IMG/VR virus record: IMGVR_UViG_3300043393_000053
Coordinates: 1 to 41,375 of that record
DNA: 41,375 bases
Reading direction: 5' to 3' (one strand)
Source: a virus
Lineage: Duplodnaviria > Caudoviricetes
In this document: piece after piece, positions 1 through 34,093 of the stretch
Layout: every line of letters begins with the position of its first letter
Position numbering within the stretch: the first letter of the stretch is position 1
Program-made: the position numbers and the translations under genes
The notes under the pieces: generated by a model
What the model was told of the DNA's origin: nothing
The model's database searches: none
Seen by the model: only the letters and a program-made list of their open reading frames with translations

Positions 1-127
1 GGGACTGCGATCTACGCCGCCTGGTACGCGTTCACCCACTCGGGGAAGATGCCGTGAAGCGCTCGCATGTCTGGCTTGGCATCTGTGTATGCCTTATGTT
101 CATTGCGGCAATCGTTGCCCTGTTCAT
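1..127. repeat. 127-bp terminal overlap identical to 41249-41375 (circular assembly)
   Basis: Exact identity of first and last 127 nt; the overlap cuts through coding sequence. Confidence 0.97.
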
Positions 128-290
128 CGCAGAGCCGCCGACCAGTGCGCGCGAACCGCTGTTCCTCTTGCTTGGATCGCTTTCCAGCGCGTTCGGAGCG
201 GTGGTTTCATACTGGTTCGGCTCAAGCTCGGGTAGCGCTGCGAAGTCTGAAATGATCGCGAAGCTGACTGACAAAGAAGTCTCGCCATGA
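54..290 (+). CDS. Holin-like membrane protein
   Basis: Two hydrophobic segments, YWFGSSSGS motif common in phage holins, upstream of endolysin. Confidence 0.75.
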   Translation: MKRSHVWLGICVCLMFIAAIVALFIAEPPTSAREPLFLLLGSLSSAFGAVVSYWFGSSSGSAAKSEMIAKLTDKEVSP

Positions 291-472
291 AGTGGATGAT
301 TGATGGGCTACTGGCCGGCATGCTTCTTGGTTTGCTGGTTTGGTTCGGCATCCGCTGCTTACGCGACTACCTGCGAAAGAACAAGCGCAGCGCTGACCGC
401 GGGGCGCAAGACCTTGAAGAGTTTGTGAAGCCTCCAGCGTCTTTCACCTGGGATGATCGTGAGCAGCGATGA
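287..472 (+). CDS. Small membrane protein
   Basis: N-terminal TM helix; ATGA overlap with the previous gene. Confidence 0.6.
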   Translation: MKWMIDGLLAGMLLGLLVWFGIRCLRDYLRKNKRSADRGAQDLEEFVKPPASFTWDDREQR

Positions 473-713
473 TGACTTCGAGCGAGCCCGAAATTCAGTG
501 CAGGTTCTGTGCGAGCGTTTCAAGGACCAGCAAGACAAGTACCGCGAAGACAAGAATGGAGCGGGTGCAAATGCCATGACAGTCGCCATGCGGCTGTTTC
601 GCACCTGGTGCCGTCAACTTGGGTTGCTCGGCCATCCGCTCGATGTGAACTTGGACAGCGGTGTAGGGAAATCACTGACACCGGATGTCAGCAAAAACGA
701 GACTCCAAAATGA
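453..713 (+). CDS. Hypothetical protein
   Basis: Overlap-coupled ORF within the operon. Confidence 0.55.
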   Translation: MIVSSDDDFERARNSVQVLCERFKDQQDKYREDKNGAGANAMTVAMRLFRTWCRQLGLLGHPLDVNLDSGVGKSLTPDVSKNETPK

Positions 714-1099
714 GATTCATTTCCTTCCTGCTGTGCGCGTTGGCTGCTTCGGCCGCCGGCCAAGTTCTTCAGCCTGTTGCACCGCCGATCAATCCGCTGC
801 TCGAATACCGCCAATGCGGCGAGCCGGCACGCGATGCCAAGGGCACGATCATCCGCCGCGCAGACGTGCTCTACGCCTACCGCAAGGCCCACCCCTGCCC
901 GGTGACCGGCAAGACGACTGGCGCGTGTCCTGGGTGGTCGATGGATCACATCGTGCCGCTCGCGAAGGGTGGCTGCGACATGGTGAGCAATCTGGCTTGG
1001 ATGCCGAACTCGATCAAGTCGTGTGCCGCGCCGAATTGCATCGACCGGTGGGAACGGACCTACTACGGTAACCCGCACGGCATCGTGGTGCTGCCATGA
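710..1099 (+). CDS. HNH-family nuclease with apparent signal peptide
   Basis: MRFISFLLCALAASAAG leader; HPCPVTG...CPGWSMDHIVPLAKGGCD..SNL HNH motif; start moved to ATG at 710 (ATGA overlap). Confidence 0.75.
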   Translation: MRFISFLLCALAASAAGQVLQPVAPPINPLLEYRQCGEPARDAKGTIIRRADVLYAYRKAHPCPVTGKTTGACPGWSMDHIVPLAKGGCDMVSNLAWMPNSIKSCAAPNCIDRWERTYYGNPHGIVVLP

Positions 1100-1557
1100 T
1101 CGACGAAAAAATCACCCCGGGATTCTGGCTCTCGGAGTTCCTGCAATCGGACACGGCCACGCGGCTCGGACTGGACAACACACCCGACACGGCAGCGCTG
1201 GCGAACATCCGCACGCTGTTGGCGCCGGGCATGCAGTCGGTGCGGGACTGCTTGGGGCAGCCGGTGTTCATCAGCTCGGGATACCGATCGCCGGCTGTCA
1301 ACCGCGCGGTGGGTGGCGCCGCGAACCCGCCGAGCCAGCACACCACCGGCCAGGCGGCGGACTTCAAGTGCCCGGCGTTCGGCCTGCCGATCACGCTGGC
1401 GCGCTACCTGGTGGCGCACGGCGGCGAGGTGCGCTTCGACCAGCTGATCTGTGAAGGCACGTGGGTGCATATCAGCTTCTCCCCGAAGCCGCGTGGCCAT
1501 GTGCTGACGGCGCATTTCGGGCCCGGTGGCACTACGTACACGCGAGGGCTGGCGTGA
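1096..1557 (+). CDS. Endolysin, peptidase M15A (D-Ala-D-Ala carboxypeptidase fold)
   Basis: SSGYRSPAVNRAVGG, SQHTTGQAAD and WVHIS motifs. Confidence 0.9.
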   Translation: MIDEKITPGFWLSEFLQSDTATRLGLDNTPDTAALANIRTLLAPGMQSVRDCLGQPVFISSGYRSPAVNRAVGGAANPPSQHTTGQAADFKCPAFGLPITLARYLVAHGGEVRFDQLICEGTWVHISFSPKPRGHVLTAHFGPGGTTYTRGLA

Positions 1558-1916
1558 GCCTGTACGCCAGCCTTGCCGCAGCCCTTCTATGGGCCGGCTC
1601 TGTCGGTGGAGCATTTTGGTATGGAATCGGAGTCGGTGATGACAAAGTGACCGCTCAGATTGCCCGTGAAGACCGGCTGGCAGAGAAGGTTTCAGAGGCC
1701 ACTGCAACAGCCGCAGCGAAGGCTATCGCTGACATCAAGGTGACGAACACAACCATCCGGCAGACACTTGAAAAGGAAGTCCATGAACGCACGGTATTTC
1801 GTGACTGTAGCTCTGGCCCTGACAGTGTGCGGATGCTCAACAGTTCACCAGCCATTGCCGCAAGGCCCGTCCCCCCTGGTGCTAGCGAGTTGTCCGCTTC
1901 TGGCGCCACTCGCTGA
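1554..1916 (+). CDS. Inner-membrane spanin (Rz-like)
   Basis: N-terminal TM helix, helical body, position after endolysin, GTG start overlapping the stop. Confidence 0.75.
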   Translation: MSLYASLAAALLWAGSVGGAFWYGIGVGDDKVTAQIAREDRLAEKVSEATATAAAKAIADIKVTNTTIRQTLEKEVHERTVFRDCSSGPDSVRMLNSSPAIAARPVPPGASELSASGATR

Positions 1917-2007
1917 CGAAACCTTTGGGGGGTGGGTTTTATGGGCGCAGTACGCGGCCGGTGTGTACGGTGAATGCCTCACTGCAATCGGGATCGTGAA
2001 ACGCTGA
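1783..2007 (+). CDS. Outer-membrane lipoprotein spanin (Rz1-like)
   Basis: Overlaps the Rz-like gene in another frame; lipobox-like LTVCGC; Pro-rich. Confidence 0.75.
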   Translation: MNARYFVTVALALTVCGCSTVHQPLPQGPSPLVLASCPLLAPLADETFGGWVLWAQYAAGVYGECLTAIGIVKR

Positions 2008-2382
2008 CTCGTTGATCCGGTCAGATTCATGACGCTCTTTGCGCGACAGCATGCGCGGCCACAGTTCGGCGACGCGAGCGAGAACCGCAGTGCGCCCCTC
2101 TAGCGCCGCCACCGGCTCACTGTTGATCGCCACAGCGAACTGATCTGAGCGCACCCGCCGAATGCCGCGCTGCGCCGGGATGCTGGCGCTGATCGTAGTC
2201 GATCCATACCGCGTGGTGACTATGATGCTCACCCACTCTTCGCCCACTGCCGGGTCAGCCTGGCGTTCTGGCAGGGCAACACGTCGCGCAAGATCAGCCG
2301 CAAAGTGCGCAGCCATCGCCTCGTGATAGGCAGGCGGCATCACCTTGCGGCGTTTGCGGTAGTGCTGAAAATTCGAGCGCAT
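1939..2382 (-). CDS. Hypothetical protein immediately left of the cassette array
   Basis: 147-aa ORF, last gene of the leftward arm; no recognisable motif. Confidence 0.55.
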   Translation of the reverse strand: MRSNFQHYRKRRKVMPPAYHEAMAAHFAADLARRVALPERQADPAVGEEWVSIIVTTRYGSTTISASIPAQRGIRRVRSDQFAVAINSEPVAALEGRTAVLARVAELWPRMLSRKERHESDRINESAFHDPDCSEAFTVHTGRVLRP

Positions 2383-2393
2383 AGTTTTGGAAG

Positions 2394-2419
2394 TAGGCGT
2401 ATTGCCTAGTTAGCCGGCT
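2394..2419 (+). other. Left junction of the array (attI/attG-like G|TTAGCC site)
   Basis: GTTAGCCGGCT (2409-2419) is the exact reverse complement of AGCCGGCTAAC at attC1 R''; no attC hairpin upstream; preceded by inverted repeat TAGGC-N5-GCCTA. Confidence 0.7.
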
Positions 2420-2858
2420 CGTAGTCCTGGACCACTTCGTCTCTCAGGGCGTCAATCGCATACTGCGGCACCACGTATCCAGCCGCGCGCAATTGCTCAA
2501 GCCGGTCGGCGCAGTCGGTCGGGCTTGCATCGTTGAACGAGTCGCCGTCGAAAGCGAGGCCAATCGGCCGCAGCGGGATCAAGTGCAGCGAGGCCATGTG
2601 CACGCGGTTGTGCCAGAAGGCCGCGAACCCAAACACGATGCGAGCGCCCAACTCGTGCCAACGGCTTGGGTACACCATGCGCCGCTCGGTGCGGTTGTAT
2701 GTGCCGCCAAAACTCGGCAGGCGCATTACCGGCACGTCAGGTATAGGCGGCACGCGGCGGCGGCTACCGGCAACGTGCGTTGCCCATCCGCCGCCAACAT
2801 CGGCATACACGTACACGTCGCAGCGCCAATTCATGCTGCTCCATCTGCAATAACTCAT
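2406..2858 (-). CDS. Cassette 1 hypothetical protein
   Basis: 150-aa ORF filling the cassette; stop codon lies just outside the crossover G. Confidence 0.8.
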   Translation of the reverse strand: MSYCRWSSMNWRCDVYVYADVGGGWATHVAGSRRRVPPIPDVPVMRLPSFGGTYNRTERRMVYPSRWHELGARIVFGFAAFWHNRVHMASLHLIPLRPIGLAFDGDSFNDASPTDCADRLEQLRAAGYVVPQYAIDALRDEVVQDYEPAN

Positions 2859-2892
2859 GCTCTCGCCCTTACCTTTGTCGCTTCCATCAGCC

Positions 2893-2946
2893 GGCTAACC
2901 CCGTTTTCGAGCGGACTGAGTACAGCCGCTCAAAACAACGTTAGCC
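2893..2946 (+). repeat. attC-like site 1 (54 bp)
   Basis: GGCTAAC...TTT(C)GAGCGG(A)CTG/CAGCCGCTCAAA...GTTAGCC; two extrahelical bases (G and T on the bottom strand). Confidence 0.92.
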
Positions 2947-2981
2947 AGACACCAAATACCTGCATGCCTGGCGCCGTAGAG

Positions 2982-3374
2982 TTAAGCCGTGTGGGTGCCT
3001 TCCACACCACGAGCCATACGCGCGCGAGTGCGGCGCTGCAAGGCGGCTTGCGCTCGCTCCATGCACGTCAGCGCTTCGGCGTTGTCGGCGCTGGCATAGG
3101 GTCCGGCTTGGAAGCCACGCATGCGGTCGCACAGAATCGCCAGCAGGGCCTCGTGCGTTACGCCGTTCACGCCCACCTCGTTGATCGGCCCGTTCTGAAA
3201 CAAGATCAGGCAGGTGTTGGGGTCTTGGTCGTCGGGGTCCGATGGGTTCGTCGTGTTGTCAAACCCGGAAATCAGGTATGCGTGGTTCGCGTTGCCGCTG
3301 CCGGGCTCATCCATCACGCGCACGGCCAGCGTGTCGTTTGCGGGGTTCACTTTGTGGTCGTCGAGGTATCGCAT
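2982..3374 (-). CDS. tad1: Cassette 2: Tad1-family anti-Thoeris/anti-CBASS nucleotide sponge
   Basis: PGSGNANHAY...FQNGP...GV..EALLAILCDRMRGFQAGPYAS.DNA.AL...RR...R..RGVEGT follows the recalled Tad1 sequence pattern over the full length. Confidence 0.85.
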   Translation of the reverse strand: MRYLDDHKVNPANDTLAVRVMDEPGSGNANHAYLISGFDNTTNPSDPDDQDPNTCLILFQNGPINEVGVNGVTHEALLAILCDRMRGFQAGPYASADNAEALTCMERAQAALQRRTRARMARGVEGTHTA

Positions 3375-3408
3375 CGCTATCCTTCTGTGTGCCAGCGTCA
3401 CGGGTGCT

Positions 3409-3504
3409 GGCTAACCCTTCCATCGAGCCGAAAACCCCGGCTTACGGGTGGTCCATCTGTCACGTCTGCACGGCCGGGTTTTCGGCTCATGTCAAACGTT
3501 AGCC
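3409..3504 (+). repeat. attC-like site 2 (96 bp)
   Basis: GGCTAAC-CCTTC-CAT(C)GAGCCGAAAACC...GGTTTTCGGCTCATG-TCAAAC-GTTAGCC. Confidence 0.92.
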
Positions 3505-3514
3505 AGACACAAAC

Positions 3515-3793
3515 TCACGGCGCGTTCCGCATGTCATGGCTCATCGCGGTGCTGCCGCAGCGCGAACAAGTTGTGCTCCATGCGCAGCCGTCTTCGCTCT
3601 CCCACGGTTCGCCGTCCCACTTGTGCTCGCACGGGCCGCCCGTGCCGCACGCGCAGTAGCACGCGAACGGCTTGGCTGTCGTGCGCAGGGTTTGCAATGG
3701 CACTCCCCACGCATCGGCCATCTTCTGCAAATGCTCCTGCACCTCCGCATTGCGGCGGGCGCGCAGGGCCGCGAAGTCGGGCGCTGCATCCAT
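3515..3793 (-). CDS. Cassette 3, second gene: Cys/His-rich putative zinc-binding protein
   Basis: CYCAC, CEH and CSRC motifs; starts 2 nt after the acb2 stop. Confidence 0.7.
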   Translation of the reverse strand: MDAAPDFAALRARRNAEVQEHLQKMADAWGVPLQTLRTTAKPFACYCACGTGGPCEHKWDGEPWESEDGCAWSTTCSRCGSTAMSHDMRNAP

Positions 3794-3795
3794 GC

Positions 3796-4053
3796 TCAAA
3801 AGGTGGTGGGCTGTGCAATGCCGCGAATCACGGCCATGAAGCCGCGTTGCAGGTCGGTCGAGCCAATGCTGATCCAGCGTTGGTCGAGCGAAAGGCCAGG
3901 TGCAGGCCCATCCGGCGAGCCGCCGACTGCGCGCAGCTTGGCGACGTAGGCGCCGCACTGCTCGGCCAGCGACTTGCCTTCGTTCATCAGCTCCACCTCG
4001 GCCTCGCTCAGTTGACGGTAACCTGTGATCTTCGGTTGAATCATCGTTTCCAT
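3796..4053 (-). CDS. acb2: Cassette 3: Acb2-family anti-CBASS cyclic-oligonucleotide sponge
   Basis: KITGYRQLSEAEVELMNEGK...RWISIGSTDLQRGFMAVIRGIAQPTTF follows the recalled Acb2 pattern (KIKGYRDLS..EI..MN..K...RWLAIG.TD.Q.G.MA.IRAIAQP..F). Confidence 0.9.
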   Translation of the reverse strand: METMIQPKITGYRQLSEAEVELMNEGKSLAEQCGAYVAKLRAVGGSPDGPAPGLSLDQRWISIGSTDLQRGFMAVIRGIAQPTTF

Positions 4054-4091
4054 GTCATTCCTTCCGGTTGTGCGCCAGCGTTCCGGGTGCT

Positions 4092-4186
4092 GGCTAACCC
4101 TTCCATCGAGCCGAAAACCCCGGCTTACGGGTGGTTCAAATCAACGCCTGAGCGGCCGGGTTTTCGGCTCATGTCAAACGTTATGC
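4092..4186 (+). repeat. attC-like site 3 (95 bp)
   Basis: Arms identical to site 2, different central loop; R' GTTATGC. Confidence 0.92.
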
Positions 4187-4357
4187 GCCTTGCTCGTCAT
4201 CGAAGATTGGGAGCCATTCGCGGCGCTTCACATCCCAATGCTGCGTAGCAAACATCGTCGCTAGCGAATAGAGCGGGTGGTGCGGCTCGCACACGACCCA
4301 TTCGCCGTCATCCTTTTGGTGCCGAACGGTGCCGGCTGCGTGTTCTTCGTTCTTCAA
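4181..4357 (-). CDS. Cassette 4, second gene: 58-aa hypothetical protein (not in ORF track)
   Basis: AGGAG RBS, TTG start overlapping the upstream TGA, stop TAA inside R' of attC3. Confidence 0.6.
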   Translation of the reverse strand: MKNEEHAAGTVRHQKDDGEWVVCEPHHPLYSLATMFATQHWDVKRREWLPIFDDEQGA

Positions 4358-5067
4358 GTTGCACTCCTAGCTATAGAAAGCAGCAGGTCGCGGAAAGGCT
4401 CCGGCGTGGCGTTCCTGATCGCAGTCTTGTTCTTCCCGCCCACCATCGCCACCACGCCGATGCGCCTGGCTTTCTCGTAGCCGTAGCGGTCGATCATCCA
4501 TTGCGGCAGGCGCTGCTCAGTCTTGCCCCACTTCAGGTTGGGCAAGTCTTCGCGCGCAATGCGGTTCGCGTACAACCATGTCGCCTTACCACTTGCGTGT
4601 CCGTAGTGGCCTTGGTACACACAGCACGTCCACCCGCCCAGGCCCGCCGACACCCAGCCGCCACTACGCGGGGGCTTCTCGATGCCATGTGCGTCCCACG
4701 CCTTGCTGTCGGCCGGGTGTTCCAGCACGCCACCGAACGCATCCACGCACGCAAGCGCCGCGCGGAAGCACCCGCCATCGTCGCCCAGCTTGTACTGGTG
4801 CGGCTTGCGCGTGCTGCCGTGCCAGAACCTGCCCCAACGCTGGCAGGGTGGGTGCGCCACCACAGGGTGCGGCCCCGCGTACTTCCTGGCGTCGCGCGCT
4901 TCGTCCCACGGCTCAACTCCTGGCACGCCCACATAGCAGCCCTTCGGCTCCACGTAGAGGGCCGCCACGGTTGCTCGCACATCCACCGGCCGCACAACCC
5001 CTCGGTCGAGCGGACAATGTCCGGCGTTCACCGCTGGCGCATCTGCAAAAAGGTCGTAGCCGGTCAT
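4354..5067 (-). CDS. Cassette 4: DNA cytosine-5 methyltransferase-like protein
   Basis: AHPPCQ (motif IV-like) and VLEHP (motif VI-like); motif I degenerate; start codon lies inside attC4. Confidence 0.6.
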   Translation of the reverse strand: MTGYDLFADAPAVNAGHCPLDRGVVRPVDVRATVAALYVEPKGCYVGVPGVEPWDEARDARKYAGPHPVVAHPPCQRWGRFWHGSTRKPHQYKLGDDGGCFRAALACVDAFGGVLEHPADSKAWDAHGIEKPPRSGGWVSAGLGGWTCCVYQGHYGHASGKATWLYANRIAREDLPNLKWGKTEQRLPQWMIDRYGYEKARRIGVVAMVGGKNKTAIRNATPEPFRDLLLSIARSAT

Positions 5068-5091
5068 TGCCTCTCACCTCAAACGTTAGGC
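4992..5091 (+). repeat. attC-like site 4 (100 bp)
   Basis: GCACAAC-CCCTC-GGT(C)GAGCGGACAATG...CATTGCCTCTCACC-TCAAAC-GTTAGGC. Confidence 0.88.
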
Positions 5092-5388
5092 CCCACGAGC
5101 AATACATGCCTCGCAAGAACAGAATGGTTTGAACCACTTTGTCTCCGTACTTGCTCGCTCCGCATTCTCTTCGCGCATCGCTATCTGACCGTCAATGAAG
5201 CCACGCCGAAATTCATGGTCAAGGGTGGATTGGTTATGAATCCGAAGCCTGTCAACTTCATCCAGTGCAGCAAGTAGCCCGTCGCAAATCGTGCGCTCAG
5301 GCATACCGTGGCTGTGAAGTGCAGCGCCTTCCTCTGCCAGTTCGCGCAGGTATTCGGCGCGCTCCGGCTCCAGGCCTAACCCTTCCAT
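5086..5388 (-). CDS. Cassette 5 hypothetical protein
   Basis: ORF starts within attC5 (ATG at 5388 or 5418) and stops at TAA in R' of attC4. Confidence 0.65.
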   Translation of the reverse strand: MEGLGLEPERAEYLRELAEEGAALHSHGMPERTICDGLLAALDEVDRLRIHNQSTLDHEFRRGFIDGQIAMREENAERASTETKWFKPFCSCEACIARGA

Positions 5389-5740
5389 CGAGCGGGACTG
5401 CCTTCGGCATCCCCTCATTTCGGACGTTAGGCGTCTTGCTGCGGATCATGGAGTCAACAAATGAAGTAACTTGACGCACGCATTCATCACTAAATTGCGT
5501 ACCTATGCGAATGTCGCCAACATGATCGCGCCATTTATCGCCAAAAAGTTGAAATGCCACACCCCTTTCGGCTTCAAAGCATCGCTTTAGGAGTTTGTAT
5601 TTCAAGACATTTTTGTCACGCCAGCCATGAAAAACAAAATTGACTTCTTTTGAGAAGTATTGCCCTTCATTCTCAAAAAATAGCCCGAACGATTGGCCGT
5701 CTCCACGTCTTGCAAGTTCCATGATGTTAAGAAGTTTCAT
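5297..5740 (-). CDS. Cassette 6 hypothetical protein (AT-rich; reads through attC5)
   Basis: ORF MKLLNIMELARR...; no stop before the crossover, so it continues PNV... into cassette 5. Confidence 0.65.
   Translation of the reverse strand: MKLLNIMELARRGDGQSFGLFFENEGQYFSKEVNFVFHGWRDKNVLKYKLLKRCFEAERGVAFQLFGDKWRDHVGDIRIGTQFSDECVRQVTSFVDSMIRSKTPNVRNEGMPKAVPLDGRVRPGAGARRIPARTGRGRRCTSQPRYA
5374..5432 (+). repeat. attC-like site 5 (59 bp)
   Basis: GCCTAAC-CCTTC-CAT(C)GAGCGGGACTGCC TTC GGCATCCCCTCATT-TCGGAC-GTTAGGC. Confidence 0.92.
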
Positions 5741-5766
5741 TCTTGGCCTTTTGTGTTTCGTCAGGC

Positions 5767-5823
5767 GCCTAACCTGCAATTCAAGCCGACGCCTGACGGC
5801 GCGGCTTAATTGCAACTTTAGGC
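5767..5823 (+). repeat. attC-like site 6 (57 bp), crossover G replaced by T
   Basis: GCCTAAC...AATT(C)AAGCCG(A)CGCC/GGCGCGGCTTAATT...TTTAGGC; arms closely resemble classical 59-base elements. Confidence 0.92.
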
Positions 5824-6273
5824 CGGGAGCGGCACCGTGGCGCCCGTGAAAGTGTCAATCAGCGGCTTGCCAGCAGCACGCACTTCGTCCACCGTCATGA
5901 ACTTGGCGCAGGCCCCTTCTGGCAAACCGTCATCCACCAGCAGGCCATAGCGCACGGTCTGCACTTCCAGCGTGGTGCTGCATCGGCAGCCCAGGCTCCA
6001 GCCCCAGTTCTGTTCGCCGCAGGCATCGCACTTCGTGCCCTGGCACACCATGCCAATTGCTTCGCCAGCACGGACGCGGCACTTCGCATTACCGAAGTCC
6101 CATCCTTGCACAGCCTGCGGCGGTTCTGTCGGGCGCGGCTCACCAGCCATTGCGGCTTCGGCGGCTTGCTCAAATACGTTTGCGGCGTCCTGCGCGGCCC
6201 GGCCTAACCCCTTGTTGCAGCCGAGCCCCAACGGCGGGATACTTGCGTTGTCAGGCTGTGAATCTGTAGTCAT
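5818..6273 (-). CDS. Cassette 7 Cys-rich hypothetical protein
   Basis: AGGAG RBS and ATG inside the attC7 loop; stop TAA in R' of attC6. Confidence 0.75.
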   Translation of the reverse strand: MTTDSQPDNASIPPLGLGCNKGLGRAAQDAANVFEQAAEAAMAGEPRPTEPPQAVQGWDFGNAKCRVRAGEAIGMVCQGTKCDACGEQNWGWSLGCRCSTTLEVQTVRYGLLVDDGLPEGACAKFMTVDEVRAAGKPLIDTFTGATVPLPA

Positions 6274-6321
6274 CTTTCTTCTCCTTGCGCCGTTGGTGCC
6301 GGCTGAACTCGAACGTTCTAC
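6202..6321 (+). repeat. attC-like site 7 (120 bp)
   Basis: GCCTAAC-CCCTT-GTT(G)CAGCCG...CCAACGGCG/CGCCGTTGG...CGGCTGAAC-TCGAAC-GTTCTAC. Confidence 0.88.
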
Positions 6322-6667
6322 GGCAATTCAAGCACTTCAGCCCAGCTCCCGCCTTGTTCCACTGCATCGGCCATTCGGTAGCGAGTCGGCGCATCGATGT
6401 CCTTCCACAGGCAACAGTCAGCGGCTTCGCGGTGAGCTGAATACTTCTCGGCACATACCGGGCATGCTGCCGAGTCGGAATCGGCCGCTTTCCCTTGGCA
6501 GCACTCTTCGGCCTCGGTTTCCTCGTCTTCGTCGAATCGTTCGCCACAGACAGGGCAGCCCAGTTGATGAGTTCTCTGGCACTCTTTCGCTTGCCGTCTG
6601 GCACACCAGCGTCTCGTGCTCTGGCGTTCGCAATGAGGCCGCTAAGGTTGAGCGGTGAAAGTTGCAT
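6318..6667 (-). pseudogene. Cassette 8: frameshifted Cys-rich (CPVC x2) protein
   Basis: N-terminal frame MQLSPLNL...ELINW; the shifted frame continues GCPVCGERFDEDEETEAEECC...CPVCAEKY...DCCLWKD...VLELP* and has no start of its own; one G appears missing at about 6559-6561. Confidence 0.65.
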
Positions 6668-6692
6668 GTTCTCTCCGTGCCTTCGTTGTGCC

Positions 6693-6778
6693 GTCGAACC
6701 AGTTAATCGAGCGGACCTCGGGCGGCAGGGCGCATCTGCACCGGTACTGCCTCGGCCCGCTCACCCTAGACGTTGGGC
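6693..6778 (+). repeat. attC-like site 8 (86 bp)
   Basis: GTCGAAC-CAGTT-AAT(C)GAGCGGACC...GGCCCGCTCACC-CTAGAC-GTTGGGC. Confidence 0.85.
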
Positions 6779-6788
6779 AGACGTGTTG

Positions 6789-7100
6789 TCACTTGCTCGC
6801 CATAGCGGCAGCAGCGCGAACGATGGCGTGTCGGGTGGCCTCGTTGGCGTCGTTGCCGAGCATGATCTCTTCCCACGCACCATCCCCCGCCGCGGTCACG
6901 TAGTCGGCACCGTTCCAGCGCAGTTCAATGCGGCATTTCACCGCCAGCCGCAGCGCGTCACCGTCGTCTGTCAGTGGATTCCACAACCTGTGGTCTCCAT
7001 CATCGGCAAAGAGCCAATGTGTGTTCGACGAACGTTTCCACTCGCCAATCTTGTGGCCCACAGCCTTCGCCGCAGCCTCAAGAAGTTCTTTGTCTGTCAT
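6789..7100 (-). CDS. Cassette 9: conserved phage protein, NinX/ABA-sandwich-like
   Basis: MTDKELLEAAAKA...WNPLTDDGDALRLAV...ATRHAIVRAAA pattern. Confidence 0.7.
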   Translation of the reverse strand: MTDKELLEAAAKAVGHKIGEWKRSSNTHWLFADDGDHRLWNPLTDDGDALRLAVKCRIELRWNGADYVTAAGDGAWEEIMLGNDANEATRHAIVRAAAAMASK

Positions 7101-7133
7101 TGTTTGACCCTCGTTCATCGAATCGGTAGCGCT

Positions 7134-7222
7134 GCCCAACCCTTCGCTCAGCCGGACCTCGGGCAGCGTGGCGCTTTTCGCCATTCGCCAAAGCCTCGGC
7201 CCGGCTAGCTCAAACGTTGTGC
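7134..7222 (+). repeat. attC-like site 9 (89 bp)
   Basis: GCCCAAC-CCTTC-GCT(C)AGCCGG(A)CC...GGCCCGGCTAGC-TCAAAC-GTTGTGC. Confidence 0.88.
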
Positions 7223-7235
7223 AGCTTGCGACCTG

Positions 7236-7382
7236 TCAGCATCCCGCACCGATCAACTCGGCGGCGAGTTTGCGACAGGCATCCTCCCAATATGAGGCGC
7301 GGCCCGCGTTGATGCTGCCGGCCCGTGCCCGCTCCAGCCAAAACATGCACTGGTACGTCAGGTGGTGCGCCTTTTTGCTCAT
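7236..7382 (-). CDS. Cassette 10, gene 3: 48-aa hypothetical protein
   Basis: ATGA-coupled to the upstream gene; GGAG RBS. Confidence 0.55.
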   Translation of the reverse strand: MSKKAHHLTYQCMFWLERARAGSINAGRASYWEDACRKLAAELIGAGC

Positions 7383-7552
7383 GGTTGTGGCTCCTTGATC
7401 TTGAGGATCGCGGCCTCGACCGCCTCGGTGCCCACGCGCGCCACCTTGGCCGCAACCTCGGGGTACGTCCGCATTTGCAGCCGTGCCGTGCGCCGCAAAT
7501 CGGGCGGCAGCGCGGGCCGCCCCATCCGCTTGGTCGTTAGGACGGTAGCCAT
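7379..7552 (-). CDS. Cassette 10, gene 2: 57-aa putative DNA-binding protein (ribbon-helix-helix-like; not in ORF track)
   Basis: MATVLTTKRMGRPALPPDLRRTARLQMRTYPEVAAKVARVGTEAVEAAILKIKEPQP; GRP followed by a strand-helix-helix pattern; TGATG coupling. Confidence 0.65.
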   Translation of the reverse strand: MATVLTTKRMGRPALPPDLRRTARLQMRTYPEVAAKVARVGTEAVEAAILKIKEPQP

Positions 7553-7737
7553 CACTCGGTTTCCACGACCTCAAAAGAGCCAATCGGCCCCATATCGCCG
7601 TCCGCAAAGAGTTCGGCCTCTTCGCGGCTCTGAAACGTGCAAGCCAACTCTGTGTCTGTCCAGCAGCGGTCCCCGGCCGGACTGGCAAACCAGAATCCAT
7701 TGTCTTCGGCCGACTTGATTTGGTACTTAGCGCTCAT
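7552..7737 (-). CDS. Cassette 10, gene 1: 61-aa acidic protein
   Basis: AGGAG RBS downstream of the internal promoter. Confidence 0.7.
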   Translation of the reverse strand: MSAKYQIKSAEDNGFWFASPAGDRCWTDTELACTFQSREEAELFADGDMGPIGSFEVVETE

Positions 7738-7781
7738 CTTGCTCTCCTGTTGCGGGCCGCACCTTGCTGCCCATGAGCATT

Positions 7782-7830
7782 AATGTACTCCGCAAATGTC
7801 GGTGCGTCAAACAGTTTATGTACTCCGCAA
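7782..7830 (-). promoter_or_regulatory. Sigma70-like promoter inside cassette 10 with a 13-bp direct repeat
   Basis: TTGACG-17-TACATT on the minus strand (7810-7782); ATGTACTCCGCAA at 7783-7795 and 7818-7830. Confidence 0.7.
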
Positions 7831-7859
7831 TTGTAAAGTTCAGCGTTTCGGAACCGGCT

Positions 7860-7917
7860 GCACAACTGGTTTATCGAGCGGACCGCTTTCAGCGGTCCGC
7901 TCATTGCCAATTTAGGC
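7860..7917 (+). repeat. attC-like site 10 (58 bp), crossover G replaced by T
   Basis: GCACAAC-TGGTT-TAT(C)GAGCGGACCGCT TTC AGCGGTCCGCTCATT-GCCAA-TTTAGGC. Confidence 0.88.
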
Positions 7918-7927
7918 CTCCAGAAAC

Positions 7928-8065
7928 TCACTTTTTGTTGCTGCCCGGGCGTTTGTAGCCCGTCGCATCACGGTGGCAATCCGCGATTTTCGGCTGTGAA
8001 ATCATGCGCGAATAGTCTGCGCGGCGGCGCTCCAAATTGCGCGCCAGTTTTTTGCTTCTCTTCAT
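7928..8065 (-). CDS. Cassette 11: 45-aa basic protein
   Basis: GAGG RBS; MKRSKKLARNLERRR... Confidence 0.6.
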   Translation of the reverse strand: MKRSKKLARNLERRRADYSRMISQPKIADCHRDATGYKRPGSNKK

Positions 8066-8089
8066 TTGCTTTCCTCTCTGTTCACCAAG

Positions 8090-8190
8090 GCCTAACCATT
8101 CGGTCGAGGCGAAATCCCACGGCAAGCGGCCGTGTTGCGCTTCGGTAAGGCCGCGCCGCCGTGGGCTTCGCCTCACCTCAAACGTTAGGG
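8090..8190 (+). repeat. attC-like site 11 (101 bp)
   Basis: GCCTAAC-CATTC-GGT(C)GAGGCGAA...CCCACGGC/GCCGTGGG...TTCGCCTCACC-TCAAAC-GTTAGGG. Confidence 0.9.
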
Positions 8191-8403
8191 CTCTTTCACG
8201 CATGCCATCGCTGCGTCGTATCGCGCCAGGTCGGCCTGCATCTGCGCCTTCGCAATCTTGATGATTTGCGAACTCGCTTTGTAGTAGTTCTTACTTGGTC
8301 CGCTCAGCAGTCCGCTTTCCAGCAGCGCGATCACGGCGCCCCAGGTGTTAAGGTTTGCGTTGGCAGTTGCGGCCTCTTTGGCTGCGGCTTCTTTGGTGCT
8401 CAT
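8185..8403 (-). CDS. Cassette 12 hypothetical helical protein
   Basis: 72-aa ORF, stop TAA in R' of attC11. Confidence 0.7.
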   Translation of the reverse strand: MSTKEAAAKEAATANANLNTWGAVIALLESGLLSGPSKNYYKASSQIIKIAKAQMQADLARYDAAMACVKEP

Positions 8404-8428
8404 ACATTCCCTCGGTTTTCAACCAGCG

Positions 8429-8529
8429 CCCTAACTCTTCGGTCGAGAGGACCCACCCCGGCGTCGCTGTTCGGTTCTTCTGTCATCGTTGTGCCCGCCG
8501 TGGCGGTCCTCTCACCTCAAACGTTCGGC
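8429..8529 (+). repeat. attC-like site 12 (101 bp)
   Basis: CCCTAAC-TCTTC-GGT(C)GAGAGGACC...GGTCCTCTCACC-TCAAAC-GTTCGGC. Confidence 0.9.
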
Positions 8530-8879
8530 CCCAATGCATCGCGCAAGCACTCCATGCGCTCTTGCATCATGCCGTCGTGTGCTTTCGGCAGCACGGTCCC
8601 GTCCCACGCCACCAGCGCACGCAGAGCGGCGTGGGGCAGATCGCGGCTGCGGAGGCTCTTGTATGCCCCGTCCAGCAGTTCGCGTAGGCGCTTGCACTCG
8701 GCCTCGGCATCCTGTTTCTGCTGCACCACATGCCCGAACGCTTCTTTCGCGCCTTCCTCGGCTAACTTGAGCGCCTCGATCTCGTCGCACAAAGCCGAGA
8801 CTTCGCGCATGCGAATCGCCGGCCACCCGTCAGGAGTGTGGTCAACCTCAAAGACGCGCATCTGCTGTACCAAATCCAT
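8517..8879 (-). CDS. Cassette 13 coiled-coil hypothetical protein
   Basis: GGAG RBS; ends PNV* using a stop supplied by attC12. Confidence 0.7.
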   Translation of the reverse strand: MDLVQQMRVFEVDHTPDGWPAIRMREVSALCDEIEALKLAEEGAKEAFGHVVQQKQDAEAECKRLRELLDGAYKSLRSRDLPHAALRALVAWDGTVLPKAHDGMMQERMECLRDALGPNV

Positions 8880-8898
8880 TCTGTCGCTCCGTGTTGAG

Positions 8899-8986
8899 GT
8901 CGAACCAGTTAATCGAGCGGACCGCCACCGGCAGTCAGCGTTTCGTGTCGGTTTGAGCAGCGGCCCGCTCATTGCCAACGTTAGGG
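8899..8986 (+). repeat. attC-like site 13 (88 bp)
   Basis: GTCGAAC-CAGTT-AAT(C)GAGCGG(A)CCGC...GCGGCCCGCTCATT-GCCAAC-GTTAGGG. Confidence 0.9.
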
Positions 8987-8999
8987 CGACACAAAATGC

Positions 9000-9497
9000 C
9001 TACGCGATCTGCACCCGAGCAATTGCCACCAGCCGAGGATCGGCCCGCGTCAAAACGTCGAGCAACAGGCGCTTCTCTTCGAGGTACATGACCGCGAACT
9101 TCGGGTCGTGCAGAACGATGCCGGCGGTGTTGCTTATGATGTCGGCGACTTTGATGGTTTGCACCCAGGCCCACGCCTTTGAAAGCCGTTCACGCGAAGC
9201 GGCCTTTCGCTCGGCGCGGTTGCCCGCCTCCATGTCGCTCAACTGCTCCACCGCATATGCCACGACGCCGCCAAACTTGGCTTCGAGCGTGTCCAGTGTC
9301 ACGACCTGATCTTCCGTGCAATCGTGTAGCCAGCACACTTGCGCCATCACGTCGTAACACAGTTGCTCGGGGCAGGCAGTCATGGCAATGCCAACCACTT
9401 CGGCCAGGTGGTCGGTATACGGGTTGCCCGTGTACTTGCGCCGCTAGTCCTTGTGCACCTCGCGGGCGAACATCATTGCTTCAAATGCATTCATCAT
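9000..9497 (-). pseudogene. Cassette 14: HD-domain protein (RelA/SpoT hydrolase, Mesh1-like) with an in-frame TAG
   Basis: FAREVHKD*RRKYTGNPYTDH...WLHDCTED...IKVADIISN; amber codon at 9444-9446 where the family has Q. Confidence 0.8.
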
Positions 9498-9517
9498 TTA
9501 GGTTCTCCACCAGTGCG

Positions 9518-9537
9518 CCCTAACCCTTCCATCGAGG
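9518..9537 (+). repeat. Truncated attC-like site 14 (R'' and L'' only)
   Basis: CCCTAAC-CCTTC-CATCGAG matches the start of sites 2, 3 and 5; no correctly spaced L'/R' follows. Confidence 0.7.
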
Positions 9538-9611
9538 TCAGGACGCCCAACTGCGTGCCGCTTTCGTTCATTGGATTTGCAGCGATTTGTGCTGTTCAAT
9601 GTGGGTACGGC

Positions 9612-10490
9612 TCATGGCTCAACCGGCGTTGCTTGCGGAGCGCTCATAGCGGCCATTGCTGCATCGCGCTTTGCAATTTCATCGGCGGTTTTCTTGAGCG
9701 ATGTTCGGAGAGCGCTGTGCGGCTTCAGGATCGACCAGAGGGCGAGCTTTTCATCGTTGTCCTCTAAACTTGCCTCCTCAAACGCACCGACATCGTCACC
9801 CTCGTTGAACTTTTGCAAAGCAGCACGCGCCGCATTCCGAACAACTATTGCTCGTGCGGGCGTCAGGCCAAAATTCTTCGGCTGATTCAACGGGTCATGG
9901 TCATCAATGTCGTTGATCGCCTTGCCTTCCATCTCTTCGGCGGTGTATTGAGCTGCGATTTCCGGGAATGCACTGCGCAGGGCCTGGGCAGACGCGCACT
10001 TTGCAATCTGGCCTTTTGGGCGCTTTGTCCACATCGCATTGGGAGCGATAGACTTCTCTTTCCCACCCTTCACAGCGTAGTTCTCAGTCCAATATTCTTT
10101 GGCCGTGAAGTCGCAGATTTCACCAGATGCGAGCCGGCGCTTTGCAGTGACGCGGCACCACTCGGGATAGGTGATTTCCTGCCCGCCGATAACCGTAACC
10201 ACGTCGGGACCGAACTCGGGTTCCGTGATCCCGGCGAACTGTTGCGAGCGCGACGCCTGGATGCGGTACAGGTTGATGCCTGGCATGATGACATCGCGCA
10301 TCGATCCTGAATTGCGGTCCCACATGGGCACGATGTGCACCGGCTTTTGCATCGGGTCAAGCCCGGCTGCGCGGCAGTACTCAATCACCAAGCCGATGGA
10401 TTGCAGCGATGCGCCGGGGTACAGCGATGTTTGAAGTACGGCCAGCATGGTTTCGTTGTTCGGCTGGAGTTGATGCACTACGGCGTTCAT
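9612..10490 (-). CDS. bet: Bet/RecT-family single-strand annealing recombinase
   Basis: GLDPMQKPVHIVPM...PGINLYRIQA...EPEFGP...MWTKRPKGQIAKCASAQALRSAFPE. Confidence 0.88.
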   Translation of the reverse strand: MNAVVHQLQPNNETMLAVLQTSLYPGASLQSIGLVIEYCRAAGLDPMQKPVHIVPMWDRNSGSMRDVIMPGINLYRIQASRSQQFAGITEPEFGPDVVTVIGGQEITYPEWCRVTAKRRLASGEICDFTAKEYWTENYAVKGGKEKSIAPNAMWTKRPKGQIAKCASAQALRSAFPEIAAQYTAEEMEGKAINDIDDHDPLNQPKNFGLTPARAIVVRNAARAALQKFNEGDDVGAFEEASLEDNDEKLALWSILKPHSALRTSLKKTADEIAKRDAAMAAMSAPQATPVEP

Positions 10491-10870: not shown

Positions 10871-10876
10871 CAAGAA

Positions 10877-11071
10877 TCATACCGCAATACCTCTTTGTTG
10901 CAAGGCTTTTTTGAGATCGGCAGTGCGCACAATGTGCGTCTTCAGTCCACGTTTCAAATTTAGGCGAGCAATGTTTTTTGCTTCGGCTTTCAGCATTGAC
11001 AAAGGGCCTGCGACCCATGCGCCGCTTGGCTGTTGCACAAGCACGATGTACCGTGTTCGCGGTTCGTTCAT
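10877..11071 (-). CDS. Hypothetical protein
   Basis: Abuts the upstream gene in the leftward operon. Confidence 0.55.
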   Translation of the reverse strand: MNEPRTRYIVLVQQPSGAWVAGPLSMLKAEAKNIARLNLKRGLKTHIVRTADLKKALQQRGIAV

Positions 11072-11341
11072 TCAGCAATCTTTAGCACAAACGCCATTGA
11101 ACAGCGAAAGGCTCGGCATCTTCTCGTCACCTGCCCAGCCCTTGTTTGCATGCGCCACACCGTCGCAAAACGCTTCGAGTTGCAAAGCTGCGGCAGAGTC
11201 AATCAAGTGTGCGCGGAGTTCGTCTCGGCTTTGCAGGTACGGGGCAACGCCCATGGAATGTGCTGTGGCAGCATCTTTTGCCAACTTGTCAGCAAAGGCC
11301 ATCGTCATGTGGACAAACTCGTCAGCAGTGATTTTGCTCAT
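11072..11341 (-). CDS. Hypothetical protein
   Basis: ATGA-coupled; GGAG RBS. Confidence 0.6.
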   Translation of the reverse strand: MSKITADEFVHMTMAFADKLAKDAATAHSMGVAPYLQSRDELRAHLIDSAAALQLEAFCDGVAHANKGWAGDEKMPSLSLFNGVCAKDC

Positions 11342-11499
11342 GCCAGCCACTCCCAGATTTTCGGAGCCCATAGAAGGCCCATGAACATGCCAACCGACAC
11401 GCCCCAGCACAGCCCATCAACAAATCGATCGGAAGACCGTACAGGCCCCTCCATGGGGATTGCGTAGTCGGCGCCTGTTTCGAGGAATGAGCCTTTCAT
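11338..11499 (-). CDS. Small membrane protein
   Basis: C-terminal TM helix; ATGA-coupled. Confidence 0.6.
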   Translation of the reverse strand: MKGSFLETGADYAIPMEGPVRSSDRFVDGLCWGVSVGMFMGLLWAPKIWEWLA

Positions 11500-11651
11500 T
11501 CGAGCACCATCGTGATAACAGCAGCCCAGAAGGCGACGCCAGCCAGGGTGACGAACCAAAACACCAGGTTGTCGATTGGTGTTGCAGAGCGCATATCGGC
11601 TGGGCAGTCGCGGCCTTGCCGGCATTCCCCATGACACGGAGGGCAGCTCAT
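11496..11651 (-). CDS. Small membrane protein with CPPCHGECRQGRDCP motif (not in ORF track)
   Basis: Cys cluster common in proteobacterial phage early genes plus a TM helix. Confidence 0.65.
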   Translation of the reverse strand: MSCPPCHGECRQGRDCPADMRSATPIDNLVFWFVTLAGVAFWAAVITMVLE

Positions 11652-11652
11652 T

Positions 11653-11817
11653 TCAGTGCCCATCACGCATCACCTCCGGGGGAAAGTCGGGGCCATCGTC
11701 GCGCTCACGCTCAATCGGTTCATCTTCGATGATGCGAATCGAAACCTGCTTTGCAATGGCTCGAAACTCCGGGTCAAGGTTTGGGTCTTCGGCGAGCATT
11801 TCCCAAAAGCTGACCAT
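11653..11817 (-). CDS. 54-aa acidic hypothetical protein (not in ORF track)
   Basis: MVSFWEMLAEDPNLDPEFRAIAK...; TGATG coupling. Confidence 0.55.
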   Translation of the reverse strand: MVSFWEMLAEDPNLDPEFRAIAKQVSIRIIEDEPIERERDDGPDFPPEVMRDGH

Positions 11818-12062
11818 CACAGCCCCCCGAAATCTGTCATTGCGGCGCCAGTGAATCGCCGTGACCGGTGCGAGCCATGGGCGCGGGCCAACAGCGTTTT
11901 GGCTGCATCAACTTGACGCTGGCCGAAATTGGCGGCGTTCTCGCGATCGGCGACTTGCTGCGCCAGGTGTTCGGCATGGCGGGCACGGCTCAGCGCAAGC
12001 ATGTCGCGGTTTGCCTGTTGAATTTCATGAAGTTGCGAAGGCGTGAGGCTGGTGTAATTCAC
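11817..12062 (-). CDS. First gene of the leftward early operon, hypothetical
   Basis: GGAG RBS, GTG start downstream of the PL-like promoter. Confidence 0.65.
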   Translation of the reverse strand: MNYTSLTPSQLHEIQQANRDMLALSRARHAEHLAQQVADRENAANFGQRQVDAAKTLLARAHGSHRSRRFTGAAMTDFGGL

Positions 12063-12102
12063 TTTAGCTCCAGGGCGCCGAGACGTTCAGCGCATGGAAG
12101 GA

Positions 12103-12131
12103 ACTATAGGCATTGCCGATTGCATTGTCAA
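12103..12131 (-). promoter_or_regulatory. PL-like sigma70 promoter
   Basis: TTGACA-17-TATAGT. Confidence 0.85.
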
Positions 12132-12208
12132 CGGCATTGCCTATTATATTTTCGACTGGCAGCACAAATAATTAGCAGTGCGCTTGCGGTAAGCATCGGC
12201 AATGCCTA
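12107..12208. promoter_or_regulatory. Three 13-bp palindromic operators
   Basis: TAGGCATTGCCGA (12107-12119), ACGGCATTGCCTA (12131-12143), TCGGCAATGCCTA (12196-12208), overlapping both promoters. Confidence 0.85.
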
Positions 12209-12212
12209 TCAT
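12184..12212 (+). promoter_or_regulatory. PR-like sigma70 promoter (probably a leaderless cro mRNA)
   Basis: TTGCGG-17-TATCAT with ATG 7 nt downstream. Confidence 0.7.
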
Positions 12213-12219
12213 GTCGAGT

Positions 12220-12477
12220 ATGAACCCGATCACTACCGCGGCATCGATCCTTGGCAGCCAGGAATTGCTGGCGCGCTGCCTGGGAGTCAAGCAGCCAACC
12301 ATCAGCGAGTGGGCGCGCCAAGAGCGCCCGATCCCAATTGAGCGGTGCGTCGACATTGAGCGAGCGACCGGGAGGAAGGTCATGCGCTGGCACTTGCGTC
12401 CCAATGACTGGCATCGCATCTGGCCGGAGCTGGTCGGCACCGAAGATGCTCCGAAGGTCGAAGAGAAGGCGGTGTGA
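12220..12477 (+). CDS. cro: Cro/YdaS-like HTH regulator
   Basis: GSQELLARCLGVKQPTISEW...IERATG..V....LRP.DW..IWPEL. Confidence 0.85.
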   Translation: MNPITTAASILGSQELLARCLGVKQPTISEWARQERPIPIERCVDIERATGRKVMRWHLRPNDWHRIWPELVGTEDAPKVEEKAV

Positions 12478-12478
12478 C

Positions 12479-12691
12479 GTGCCCCAACTCACAGCGCCCC
12501 GATACAAGCAGCGCCGGCTGCAACGCGAGCGCGAAGCCTTCCGCGCAACAGCCGAGTACGCCGCGCTGCGTGTGAGGTTTGCCGAGACGTTGGTGCGTGC
12601 CATGCCGTCGAGCATCGCCGCCGCTTGGCCCGATTCCTACCCCCAAGGGGGCGAGTGCGCCCCCCATGAATCGCAGGGGGTGGCGGCTTGA
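12479..12691 (+). CDS. Hypothetical protein
   Basis: Fills the gap between cro and the next gene. Confidence 0.5.
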   Translation: MPQLTAPRYKQRRLQREREAFRATAEYAALRVRFAETLVRAMPSSIAAAWPDSYPQGGECAPHESQGVAA

Positions 12692-33602: not shown

Positions 33603-34093
33603 TGGGCCTCAGCAAGTCCGAATTGTGTGCCGTACTTTCATATGATTCGACAACAGGCATTTTTGTTTGGATAAAATCACTATCTAATGTTGTTAAAGTC
33701 GGCTCTATTGCCGGGAAAATTGGCAAAGATGGGCGCAGAGATATTTGCGTAGCGCGCAAGATTTACAAAGCCCACCGGCTGGCTTGGCTTTATGTTTATG
33801 GTGTTTGGCCGACAAACGTAATTGACCATATTGACGGAGACAACGGCAACAACCGGATTGATAATCTTCGTGATGTTGTTCAATCGACAAATATGCAAAA
33901 CATGCGCAAAGCCCGCATGGATAGCAAATCACAAAGCCTTGGCGTGCACTGTATAAAAAGCAGCGGTAAATTTAGGGCGCAGCTAAAGGTAGACGGCATG
34001 ACTCGGCACATTGGATGTTTTGATAGCAAAGATGACGCGCATGCTGCGTATATTTCTGCAAAACGCCTATTTCATGAAGGTTGCACGCTATGA
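33602..34093 (+). CDS. HNH homing endonuclease (HNH + AP2-like)
   Basis: YKAHRLAWLYVYG.WP...IDHIDGD..NNRIDNLR; AT-rich. Confidence 0.9.
   Translation: MGLSKSELCAVLSYDSTTGIFVWIKSLSNVVKVGSIAGKIGKDGRRDICVARKIYKAHRLAWLYVYGVWPTNVIDHIDGDNGNNRIDNLRDVVQSTNMQNMRKARMDSKSQSLGVHCIKSSGKFRAQLKVDGMTRHIGCFDSKDDAHAAYISAKRLFHEGCTL

Follow-up and report, generated by a model that had tools for sequence, protein, structure and literature searches.

An integron-type cassette array of reversed gene polarity in the early arm of an integrase-less phage

The attC sites of the array

The window, that is, the whole 41,375-nt stretch of DNA analysed here, is a complete circular phage contig (Caudoviricetes; record IMGVR_UViG_3300043393_000053, for which direct terminal repeats and 100% completeness are given), its start sequence being seen again at 41248 on a circle of 41,247 bp. 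Its early arm holds an array of attC sites, the sites that bound gene cassettes in integrons, and the genes between them lie in the reverse of the usual cassette orientation. Thirteen full attC sites of 54-120 nt were found between 2893 and 8986, every one with its top strand on the + strand. The R'' box ends in AAC in all 13, R' begins with GTT in 11 and with TTT in two (sites 6 and 10), the spacers beside these boxes are of 5 and 6 nt, and the extrahelical L'' base is C in 12 sites and G in site 7. With the G|TT of the head, at 2409, and a half site (5' half) beginning the array's other end at 9518, they make up 14 units, of which the 13 closed ones measure 273-905 bp, and the array spans 17.3% of the circle. 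The initial annotation had described 13 co-oriented full sites of 54-120 bp plus a half site with this box pattern, TTT in two R' boxes, C in all but site 7 and units of about 270-900 bp covering about 17% of the genome, and all of these counts were reproduced. The L'' and L' boxes pair at 85 of 91 positions when the + strand is taken as the top strand versus 55 of 91 when it is reversed, and this pairing geometry fixes the strand polarity of the sites.

The sites were called with a heuristic attC caller tuned on the window's own 13 sites, which gave no match in five shuffled genomes or in 545 kb of shuffled loci, and a covariance model was added as an outside test. The model was built from 35 bacterial chromosomal attC sites, those matching the window-derived pattern being excluded, and in the underlying alignment 90% of the cells were paired with 86 double changes. 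Such a covariance-model search had been proposed in the initial annotation, and it matched 13 of 13 sites full-length on the + strand at 26-58 bits, giving elsewhere in the genome only a 12-bit mirror match of site 1. All on the + strand, the sites are site 1 (2893..2946, 54 nt, 42.3 bits), site 2 (3409..3504, 96 nt, 56.1 bits), site 3 (4092..4186, 95 nt, 51.4 bits), site 4 (4992..5091, 100 nt, 48.7 bits), which contains the ribosome-binding site (RBS) and start of a cassette 4 gene, site 5 (5374..5432, 59 nt, 48.8 bits), site 6 (5767..5823, 57 nt, 39.1 bits), site 7 (6202..6321, 120 nt, 41.7 bits), site 8 (6693..6778, 86 nt, 36 bits), site 9 (7134..7222, 89 nt, 48.5 bits), site 10 (7860..7917, 58 nt, 26 bits), site 11 (8090..8190, 101 nt, 58.3 bits), site 12 (8429..8529, 101 nt, 45.5 bits) and site 13 (8899..8986, 88 nt, 48.3 bits). 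Core similarity among them is low (mean column identity 49%), the cores of sites 2 and 3 being 89% alike. A gathering-threshold scan of the window against Rfam, where attC is not expected, gave no match, and a distant-match search of site 6 against plasmids found none; by eye, two 15-nt blocks are common to the minus strand of site 6 and the attCaadA7 oligonucleotide (PMC9892861, Table S3).

Compared with shuffled sequences, the integrated sites were predicted to fold with z < -2 in 10 of 13 cases. The bottom strands of the circular forms were predicted to fold better than the integrated ones in 12 of 13, and to be stabler than the top strands in 11 of 13 circular forms. At the array head (2385..2415, + strand) the crossover G|TT lies at 2409/2410 and the start of cassette 1 matches the R'' of site 1 over 11 nt; the left flank would be either the decayed 3' half of an attC or a secondary site. 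At the other end a decayed terminal site (9518..9630, + strand) keeps R'' and L'' intact, with a possible L' at 9610-9616 overlapping the stop of the neighbouring RecT gene and no R'. It was not matched by the bacterial covariance model; a sequence-only model made from the window's own sites, which is circular and was used for this half site only, scored it at 14.6 bits over model positions 2-52.

Gene polarity and traces of cassette circles

Every recognisable gene in the array (PHROGs, Pfam) lies on the minus strand, which is the attC bottom strand, and the usual cassette layout, in which the gene is on the top strand and ends at R'', was not seen in the window. A polarity caller using a codon model trained on the window phage called eight cassettes antisense and none sense, with four uncalled, out of 12 (cassettes 1 and 14 were not scored). 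Other viral loci gave 49 antisense, 5 sense and 23 uncalled among 77 cassettes, and viral contigs bearing the integron integrase IntI gave 37 antisense, none sense and 18 uncalled among 55 cassettes on 23 contigs. Among 95 cassettes of bacterial loci none was antisense, 42 were sense and 53 were uncalled. These counts bear on whether the phage captured a piece of a host chromosomal integron whole, an idea that would fit the occurrence of the same attC family in Burkholderiales chromosomes and the capture of chromosomal arrays reported for Vibrio prophages (PMC9892861). All 42 called cassettes of the bacterial loci are sense whereas those of the window are antisense, its cargo belongs to phage families and 13 of its 14 cassettes have a phage-like GC of 0.57-0.64, and such a capture is very improbable, being largely refuted by these points. 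Among loci holding relatives of the RecT protein encoded next to the array, 8 of 79 have two or more attC sites, and 33 of their 35 sites face against RecT. Of 80 loci encoding the immune-signal sponge Acb2, 8 carry arrays, all facing against Acb2, and only 1 of 53 loci encoding the sponge Tad1 has two or more sites.

The sites are also tied to the signals of the genes beside them. The R' box forms the stops of four cassette genes and two further stops lie just across the crossover, in-frame starts are found inside the cores for five cassette genes, and leader open reading frames (ORFs) from three cores overlap the start of the next gene. Among ten homologues of the protein of cassette 4 taken from databases, several have N- and C-terminal words that by eye fit attC bottom strands. 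A consensus scan near 2409 found no + strand promoter of the kind of Pc, the integron cassette promoter. The frequent placing of stops in the R' box mirrors the usual layout and, as some attC sites are known to recombine their top strand at a low rate (PMC5027507), it could be supposed that recombination in the phage uses the opposite strand of the sites, which would leave their genes effectively in normal orientation. Nevertheless, the cores are linked to the R'' side by 17 to 1 (see below) and at the attI-like site of IntI-bearing phages the junction is a top-strand G|TT of the usual geometry, so we find this supposition hardly credible.

In an integron the R'' box is expected to match the first bases of the cassette's own start and not the adjacent R'. 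Within the box, 53 of 56 positions of R'' agree with the cassette's own start over the 14 units (p<1e-5, the permutation mean being 34.8); for the five bases that follow, the agreement is 38 of 70 (mean 24.1, p about 1e-4), while over the same nine positions R'' matched the adjacent R' at 53 of 117. This end-to-start complementarity is the mark of former cassette circles.

Evidence of movement comes from other phages. Cassette 3, which holds an Acb2 gene and a companion, also occurs in loci L162, L165 and L171, with 86-90% identity among themselves and 78-80% to the window; the three share an identical 43-nt R''-side core, their neighbours differ on both sides and the homology breaks at G|TT. 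The initial annotation had named gain and loss breakpoints at G|TT as a point to look for in relatives, and here they are seen in other phages. Locus L080 shares the Tad1 cassette of the window, with homology running from G|TT to AAC. Of 49 viral site pairs whose cores are at least 88% identical, 17 (10 of them from one cassette family) had only the R''-side flank in common, 1 only the R'-side flank, 5 both and 26 neither; the linkage of cores to the R''-side flank places the crossover at R', as in bottom-strand recombination (PMC5027507). In L178, L174, L175, L196 and L162 the Acb2 gene either fills a cassette by itself (331 bp) or shares it with one of three different partners lying downstream (531-801 bp), the ends being complementary in every case, and it is uncassetted in most other loci. 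Cores 94-96% identical to those of sites 2 and 3 were found on other cargo in L136 and L137, the core of site 2 being 96% like that of the L137 site, and the presence of these cores on unrelated cargo needs top-strand exchange, homologous exchange or new cassette formation. Judged from these sequence comparisons, the sites delimit genuine integron gene cassettes that move as G|TT-to-G units and are not mere hairpins.

Alternatively, the neighbouring Red-type system of RecT could be using the sites as linkers of homology, IntI playing no part. Boundary sequences and the PeSL elements of phage T4 are analogues of such linkers, the RecT gene immediately precedes the array, the likeness of cores 2 and 3 could allow them to recombine by homology, and neither flank was common in 26 of the 49 near-identical core pairs. 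On the other hand, the cores are mostly unrelated, the breakpoints fall at G|TT between unrelated cores, complementarity to the cassette's own start is not expected from homologous exchange, and arrays occur in only 8 of the 79 RecT-relative loci. We therefore regard linkers as quite improbable.

Traffic in the window phage itself was sought in one DNA run, possibly its source, no RNA run holding the phage being listed; about 52 in 100 of the run's contigs were examined, and they left much of the array uncovered, a gap to which no weight is attached. A 9.4-kb contig ends at 2415, and a variant contig of depth 2.6 aligns over 2217-2413 with 21 letters left over; these ends and departures at the head site (2413-2415) give a weak hint of an alternative first cassette. 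Contig joints considered as excision junctions were rejected, their sides being of 20-45 letters and fitting repeated or foreign attC sites.

Cassette cargo and genomic setting

All cassette genes described here lie on the minus strand. Cassette 2 carries a homologue of Tad1 (2982..3374; PDB 8kbb/7uav, E about 1e-12), whose best PDB match is a chain named gp184 (8y6v, E 1.5e-20) and which had no Pfam match. The protein keeps a Phe, an Asn and two Arg aligned with the pocket for glycocyclic ADP-ribose (gcADPR) and a Thr matching T95 of CmTad1, and has Ala in place of the Arg matching CmTad1 R88 of the trinucleotide site (residue roles from PMC10680739). As compared with Tad1 structures 7UAV and 8KBB, the gcADPR-pocket residues are thus kept and the trinucleotide Arg is replaced, and the product is a predicted Tad1-type sponge. 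Cassette 3 holds gene a (3515..3793; 92 aa, Cys-rich), which accompanies Acb2 and is 80-84% identical at the amino acid level in L162/L165/L171, and gene b (3796..4053), a predicted Acb2-type sponge that passes PF24729 (51.5 bits, cut-off 27) and matches the Acb2 structure PDB 8H2J with E 3e-11. Cassettes 2 and 3 have nearly identical ends and core.

Cassette 4 (4181..5067) encodes a 58-aa ORF with its TAA stop from R' and a phrog_12600 protein that starts inside site 4. The latter carries a PPCQ motif and might possibly be a cytosine methyltransferase, which we take as a lead only; the Atlas gave a DNA-methylase lead of just 12% and no PDB match was found for it. The cassette 5 gene (5086..5388) starts inside site 5 and stops in the R' of site 4, and the cassette 7 gene (5818..6273) has its RBS and start inside site 7 and its stop in the R' of site 6. 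Between them, the cassette 6 ORF (5427..5740), for which no homologue was found on searching, has a frame that continues through site 5 to 5297, and this cassette (5427-5817) has a GC of 0.45 versus about 0.6 elsewhere. Cassette 1 holds a phrog_13573 gene (2406..2834) with its stop just beyond the crossover, to which the Atlas search gave no name, and cassette 8 a Cys-rich gene (6318..6667) in two overlapping frames. The cassette 9 gene (6789..7100) belongs to phrog_5086, the family of the first cassette of the IntI-bearing phage L383. Cassette 10 (7236..7850) has three small ORFs (7236-7382, 7379-7555 and 7552-7737); the sigma70-like promoter that precedes them has its -35 at 7810 and is accompanied by two direct repeats. 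Cassette 11 has a small, basic ORF (7928..8065), and the 72-aa gene of cassette 12 (8185..8403) stops in the R' of site 11, its start being overlapped by a leader ORF from site 12. The cassette 13 gene (8517..8879) ends in PNV with its stop inside site 12, and cassette 14 holds a gene for an HD-domain phosphohydrolase (9000..9497). Cargo families common to the window and the IntI-bearing phages are phrog_12600 (L379), phrog_5086 (L383) and Tad1 (L416), and there they occupy first or second cassettes.

The gene order of the window is early genes, cassette array and lysis genes, the last at 1-2 kb. The early arm is leftward, and the whole-genome PHROGs and Pfam annotation also gave O/P-like replication genes, NinB, NinG and terminase, portal, head and tail genes. 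Within the early leftward operon a gene for a RecT/Bet-like annealing protein (9612..10490, minus strand) immediately precedes the array, and leftward sigma70-like promoters predicted to drive the operon into the array lie on the minus strand within 10876..12131, at 12131 (11 of 12 matches) and 10903, both being consensus matches only. Promoter-like sites stand back-to-back near 12125-12131 in the lambdoid early region (12100-13000), where PHROGs and Pfam recognised no repressor; given this and the want of an integrase, the phage is possibly a lytic derivative of a temperate one. Four nuclease-like ORFs (HNH types and DUF559) were also observed, at 710-1099, 12688-13218, 13146-13793 and 33599-34093.

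Possible integrase loss and the integrons of IntI-bearing phages

Searches of the complete genome for tyrosine, serine and integron integrases (PF00589, PF00239, PF07508 and TIGR02249) all gave zero matches, as did a search with a real IntI protein, whereas the four family searches found their targets in 14, 13, 6 and 14 of 14 control genomes, which bears out the initial annotation that no integrase is encoded. The attI-like motif of IntI-bearing phages is absent at the array head of the window, other attI types being possible. Left of the head, where attI, intI and int would stand, there is a 147-aa orphan (ORF 1939-2382) that has four homologues and no IntI likeness. The window array is therefore not a complete integron but an attC cluster that has no integron integrase (CALIN), of 14 cassettes.

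A 22-nt pattern of the window's attC family matched about 200 genome stretches, and 44 of 79 listed loci were labelled betaproteobacterial; on this indirect evidence a betaproteobacterial host is likely. The family adjoins IntI in several Burkholderiales chromosomal loci. With the Rhizobacter IntI as query, 67 viral contigs (L368-L434) were found to encode IntI relatives, 23 of which have called cassettes, upstream of and co-directional with intI. All five phage IntI relatives tested pass TIGR02249 and are followed by a phage integrase and then by lysis or tail genes; a second integrase was found in 30 of the 55 IntI-bearing loci having 4 kb downstream. An attI-like motif, both derived and counted in one set of loci, lies upstream in 29 of 65 IntI-bearing viral loci and in 0 of 14 bacterial loci, at 60-200 bp from intI in the viral contigs, and joins at G|TT. 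A phage-only clade takes 37 of the 49 phage IntI rows with support of 98/90 in a tree holding only 8 bacterial rows, and the enzyme of L380 nests with host enzymes. The order in these phages runs from early genes through reversed cassettes, attI-like site, intI and phage integrase to lysis or tail genes. On these matches and this order, phages with complete integrons of the window's reversed polarity exist, and the window looks like an intI-less member of their kind. L174 has a fragment of intI within a cassette of its array (5505-5717), and in L429 intI is split and lies downstream of RecT and one site (4594-5026); both are possibly stages of intI loss. Also observed were a reverse transcriptase gene in an IntI-bearing phage (L398:18919-19917) and a Pelomonas array (L290:3484-6256) with three 270-bp cassettes 83-92% alike and without a called gene.

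CALINs had been described in the initial annotation as generally not phage elements, and this part of its cassette-platform reading does not stand, although its genuine attC cassettes and absent integrase do. In a set of 10,705 phages Qi et al. (2023) reported 17 CALINs, and they showed that IntI1 recombines five attC sites from phages (PMC9892861). The 14 phages in their Table S1 have 2-4 attC sites each as against 13 in the window. Their phage ctTUS972 (MW202573, L436) has like the window an attC cluster without intI in a phage; our model finds four sites in it (2069-3738), opposite to the annotated genes and between a gp157-like gene and an M15 peptidase, so that its layout is reversed as in the window. 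The CALIN of phage TJE1, unlike the window, has normal polarity. Reversed polarity, phage-own intI and attI and anti-defence cargo are not remarked upon in the accessible portions of Qi et al. (PMC9892861). Within a literature coverage that leaves most subscription journals outside, neither reversed arrays nor an IntI clade of phages nor cassettes with anti-defence genes were found described, and on reversed or phage-own integrons only that paper turned up. Relative to known phage CALINs, the window is new in polarity, size and cargo. Classical integrons (class 1, and betaproteobacterial chromosomal integrons such as those of Rhizobacter, L245-L248) share with it the attC boxes, the unpaired base, the bottom-strand geometry, the G|TT crossover, the circular-cassette complementarity and the reuse of one core on different cargo. 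Unlike them, the window has no intI, no attI-like motif and no consensus match to a Pc near the array head, its genes lie on the bottom strand with starts inside cores and stops in R', and its cargo consists of phage early genes.

We hold, with a probability of roughly 0.6, that the window contains a genuine cassette array of reversed polarity that IntI likely built by acting at G|TT on the folded bottom strands of attC, and that is likely edited now only by an IntI supplied in trans. Several points weigh against this reading besides the limits of the motif and tree given above. The polarity caller made at least one miscall (L388) and left many cassettes uncalled (23/77, 53/95 and 18/55), and L388 holds at 8605-9950 the cassette 10 module (promoter, small gene and regulator-like gene) in the opposite, sense orientation; this copy is an exact tandem duplicate next to attI. 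Decay is apparent at both array ends, which are degenerate, in the two TTT boxes, in the in-frame stop at codon 18 of the cassette 14 gene (9444-9446), in the probable frameshift of the cassette 8 gene and in the cassette 6 frame that reads through site 5. The integrated forms of sites 4, 8 and 13 (z -0.1, -0.2 and -0.7) fold no better than shuffles. Without an attI, insertion has only attC or secondary sites to go to. The cores of the window's Tad1 and Acb2 cassettes differ from those of their homologues, for which bottom-strand exchange alone is insufficient. For the phage as a whole no close relative turned up (the best matches at the amino acid level were 67% for RecT and 57% for the endolysin), the array gave only single-gene pieces in 11 matched records of 50,697 phage records and no array, and the 16 loci from an endolysin search for a sister genome included none with two attC sites, so that the loss of intI is argued from gene order.

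Part of this decay would also suit a frozen relic, built by IntI in an ancestor and altered since the loss of attI and intI only by mutation, slippage and homologous exchange. The genome has neither intI nor the attI-like motif, two genes are probably broken, the ends are degenerate, three sites have weak integrated folds, and complementarity beyond the box is 0.53 versus 0.70 in other viral arrays. A relic is nonetheless unlikely in our judgement, if a serious competitor, as L pairing (6.54/7) and the match of R'' to its own start (0.94) put site quality on a par with other groups, the near-identical cores with other cargo in L136 and L137 suggest recent traffic, and one run gave the weak hint of head variation.

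Proposed mechanism and meaning

If the array was built by IntI, the enzyme would recombine folded attC bottom strands at G|TT and so build up cassettes at the end of the early leftward operon; for present editing it would be supplied in trans by a betaproteobacterial host or by another phage. The window genome may derive from a phage integron that has lost its attI-intI-int block, and editing in trans would then proceed through attC x attC or secondary sites, for which attG insertion offers a route (bioRxiv 10.1101/2022.09.11.507474); cassettes would still be shuffled today through a borrowed IntI. Cassettes would be read from the phage's own early promoters and not from Pc, the cores often supplying start signals or stops to their genes. 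Through the reversal, host cassettes (defences included) would stay unexpressed in the phage, as would phage cassettes placed behind a host Pc. The origin of phage lambda lies in its O gene; should the origin of the window phage be in its O-like gene, the reversal would also make the bottom strand the template for lagging-strand synthesis at the leftward fork. This is the arrangement that favours excision (PMC5371416). Tad1 and Acb2 would be taken up or lost depending on whether hosts carry Thoeris or CBASS (antiphage signalling that is based on cyclic oligonucleotides), or Panoptes. Panoptes punishes carriers of Acb2 and phages escape it by losing the gene (PMC12657218), which gives a reason to keep sponge genes excisable. 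More tentatively, and with somewhat less than an even chance, phages may run an integron system of their own, with an IntI clade, attI and a host-insulated reversed pool of cassettes minted de novo out of ordinary phage genes, which integrase-less phages would tap so as to acquire and shed counter-defence genes on demand.

Integrons are known as bacterial tools and lately as stores of anti-phage defences (bioRxiv 10.1101/2024.07.02.601686 and 10.1101/2024.07.02.601719); in those defence banks as in the window cassettes stand in the phage-host arms race, the window representing the phage side with predicted counter-defence. If true, a counterpart on the phage side, with an IntI lineage to itself, genes in reverse and sponge-type counter-defence cargo, would extend integrons to the other side of that race. 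The cargo has uncassetted homologues in other phages, which opens cassette creation to comparative testing, and phage arrays may expose how attC cassettes are created if the reading of a phage-own integron is true. Reversed arrays also flag candidate anti-defence genes for screening.

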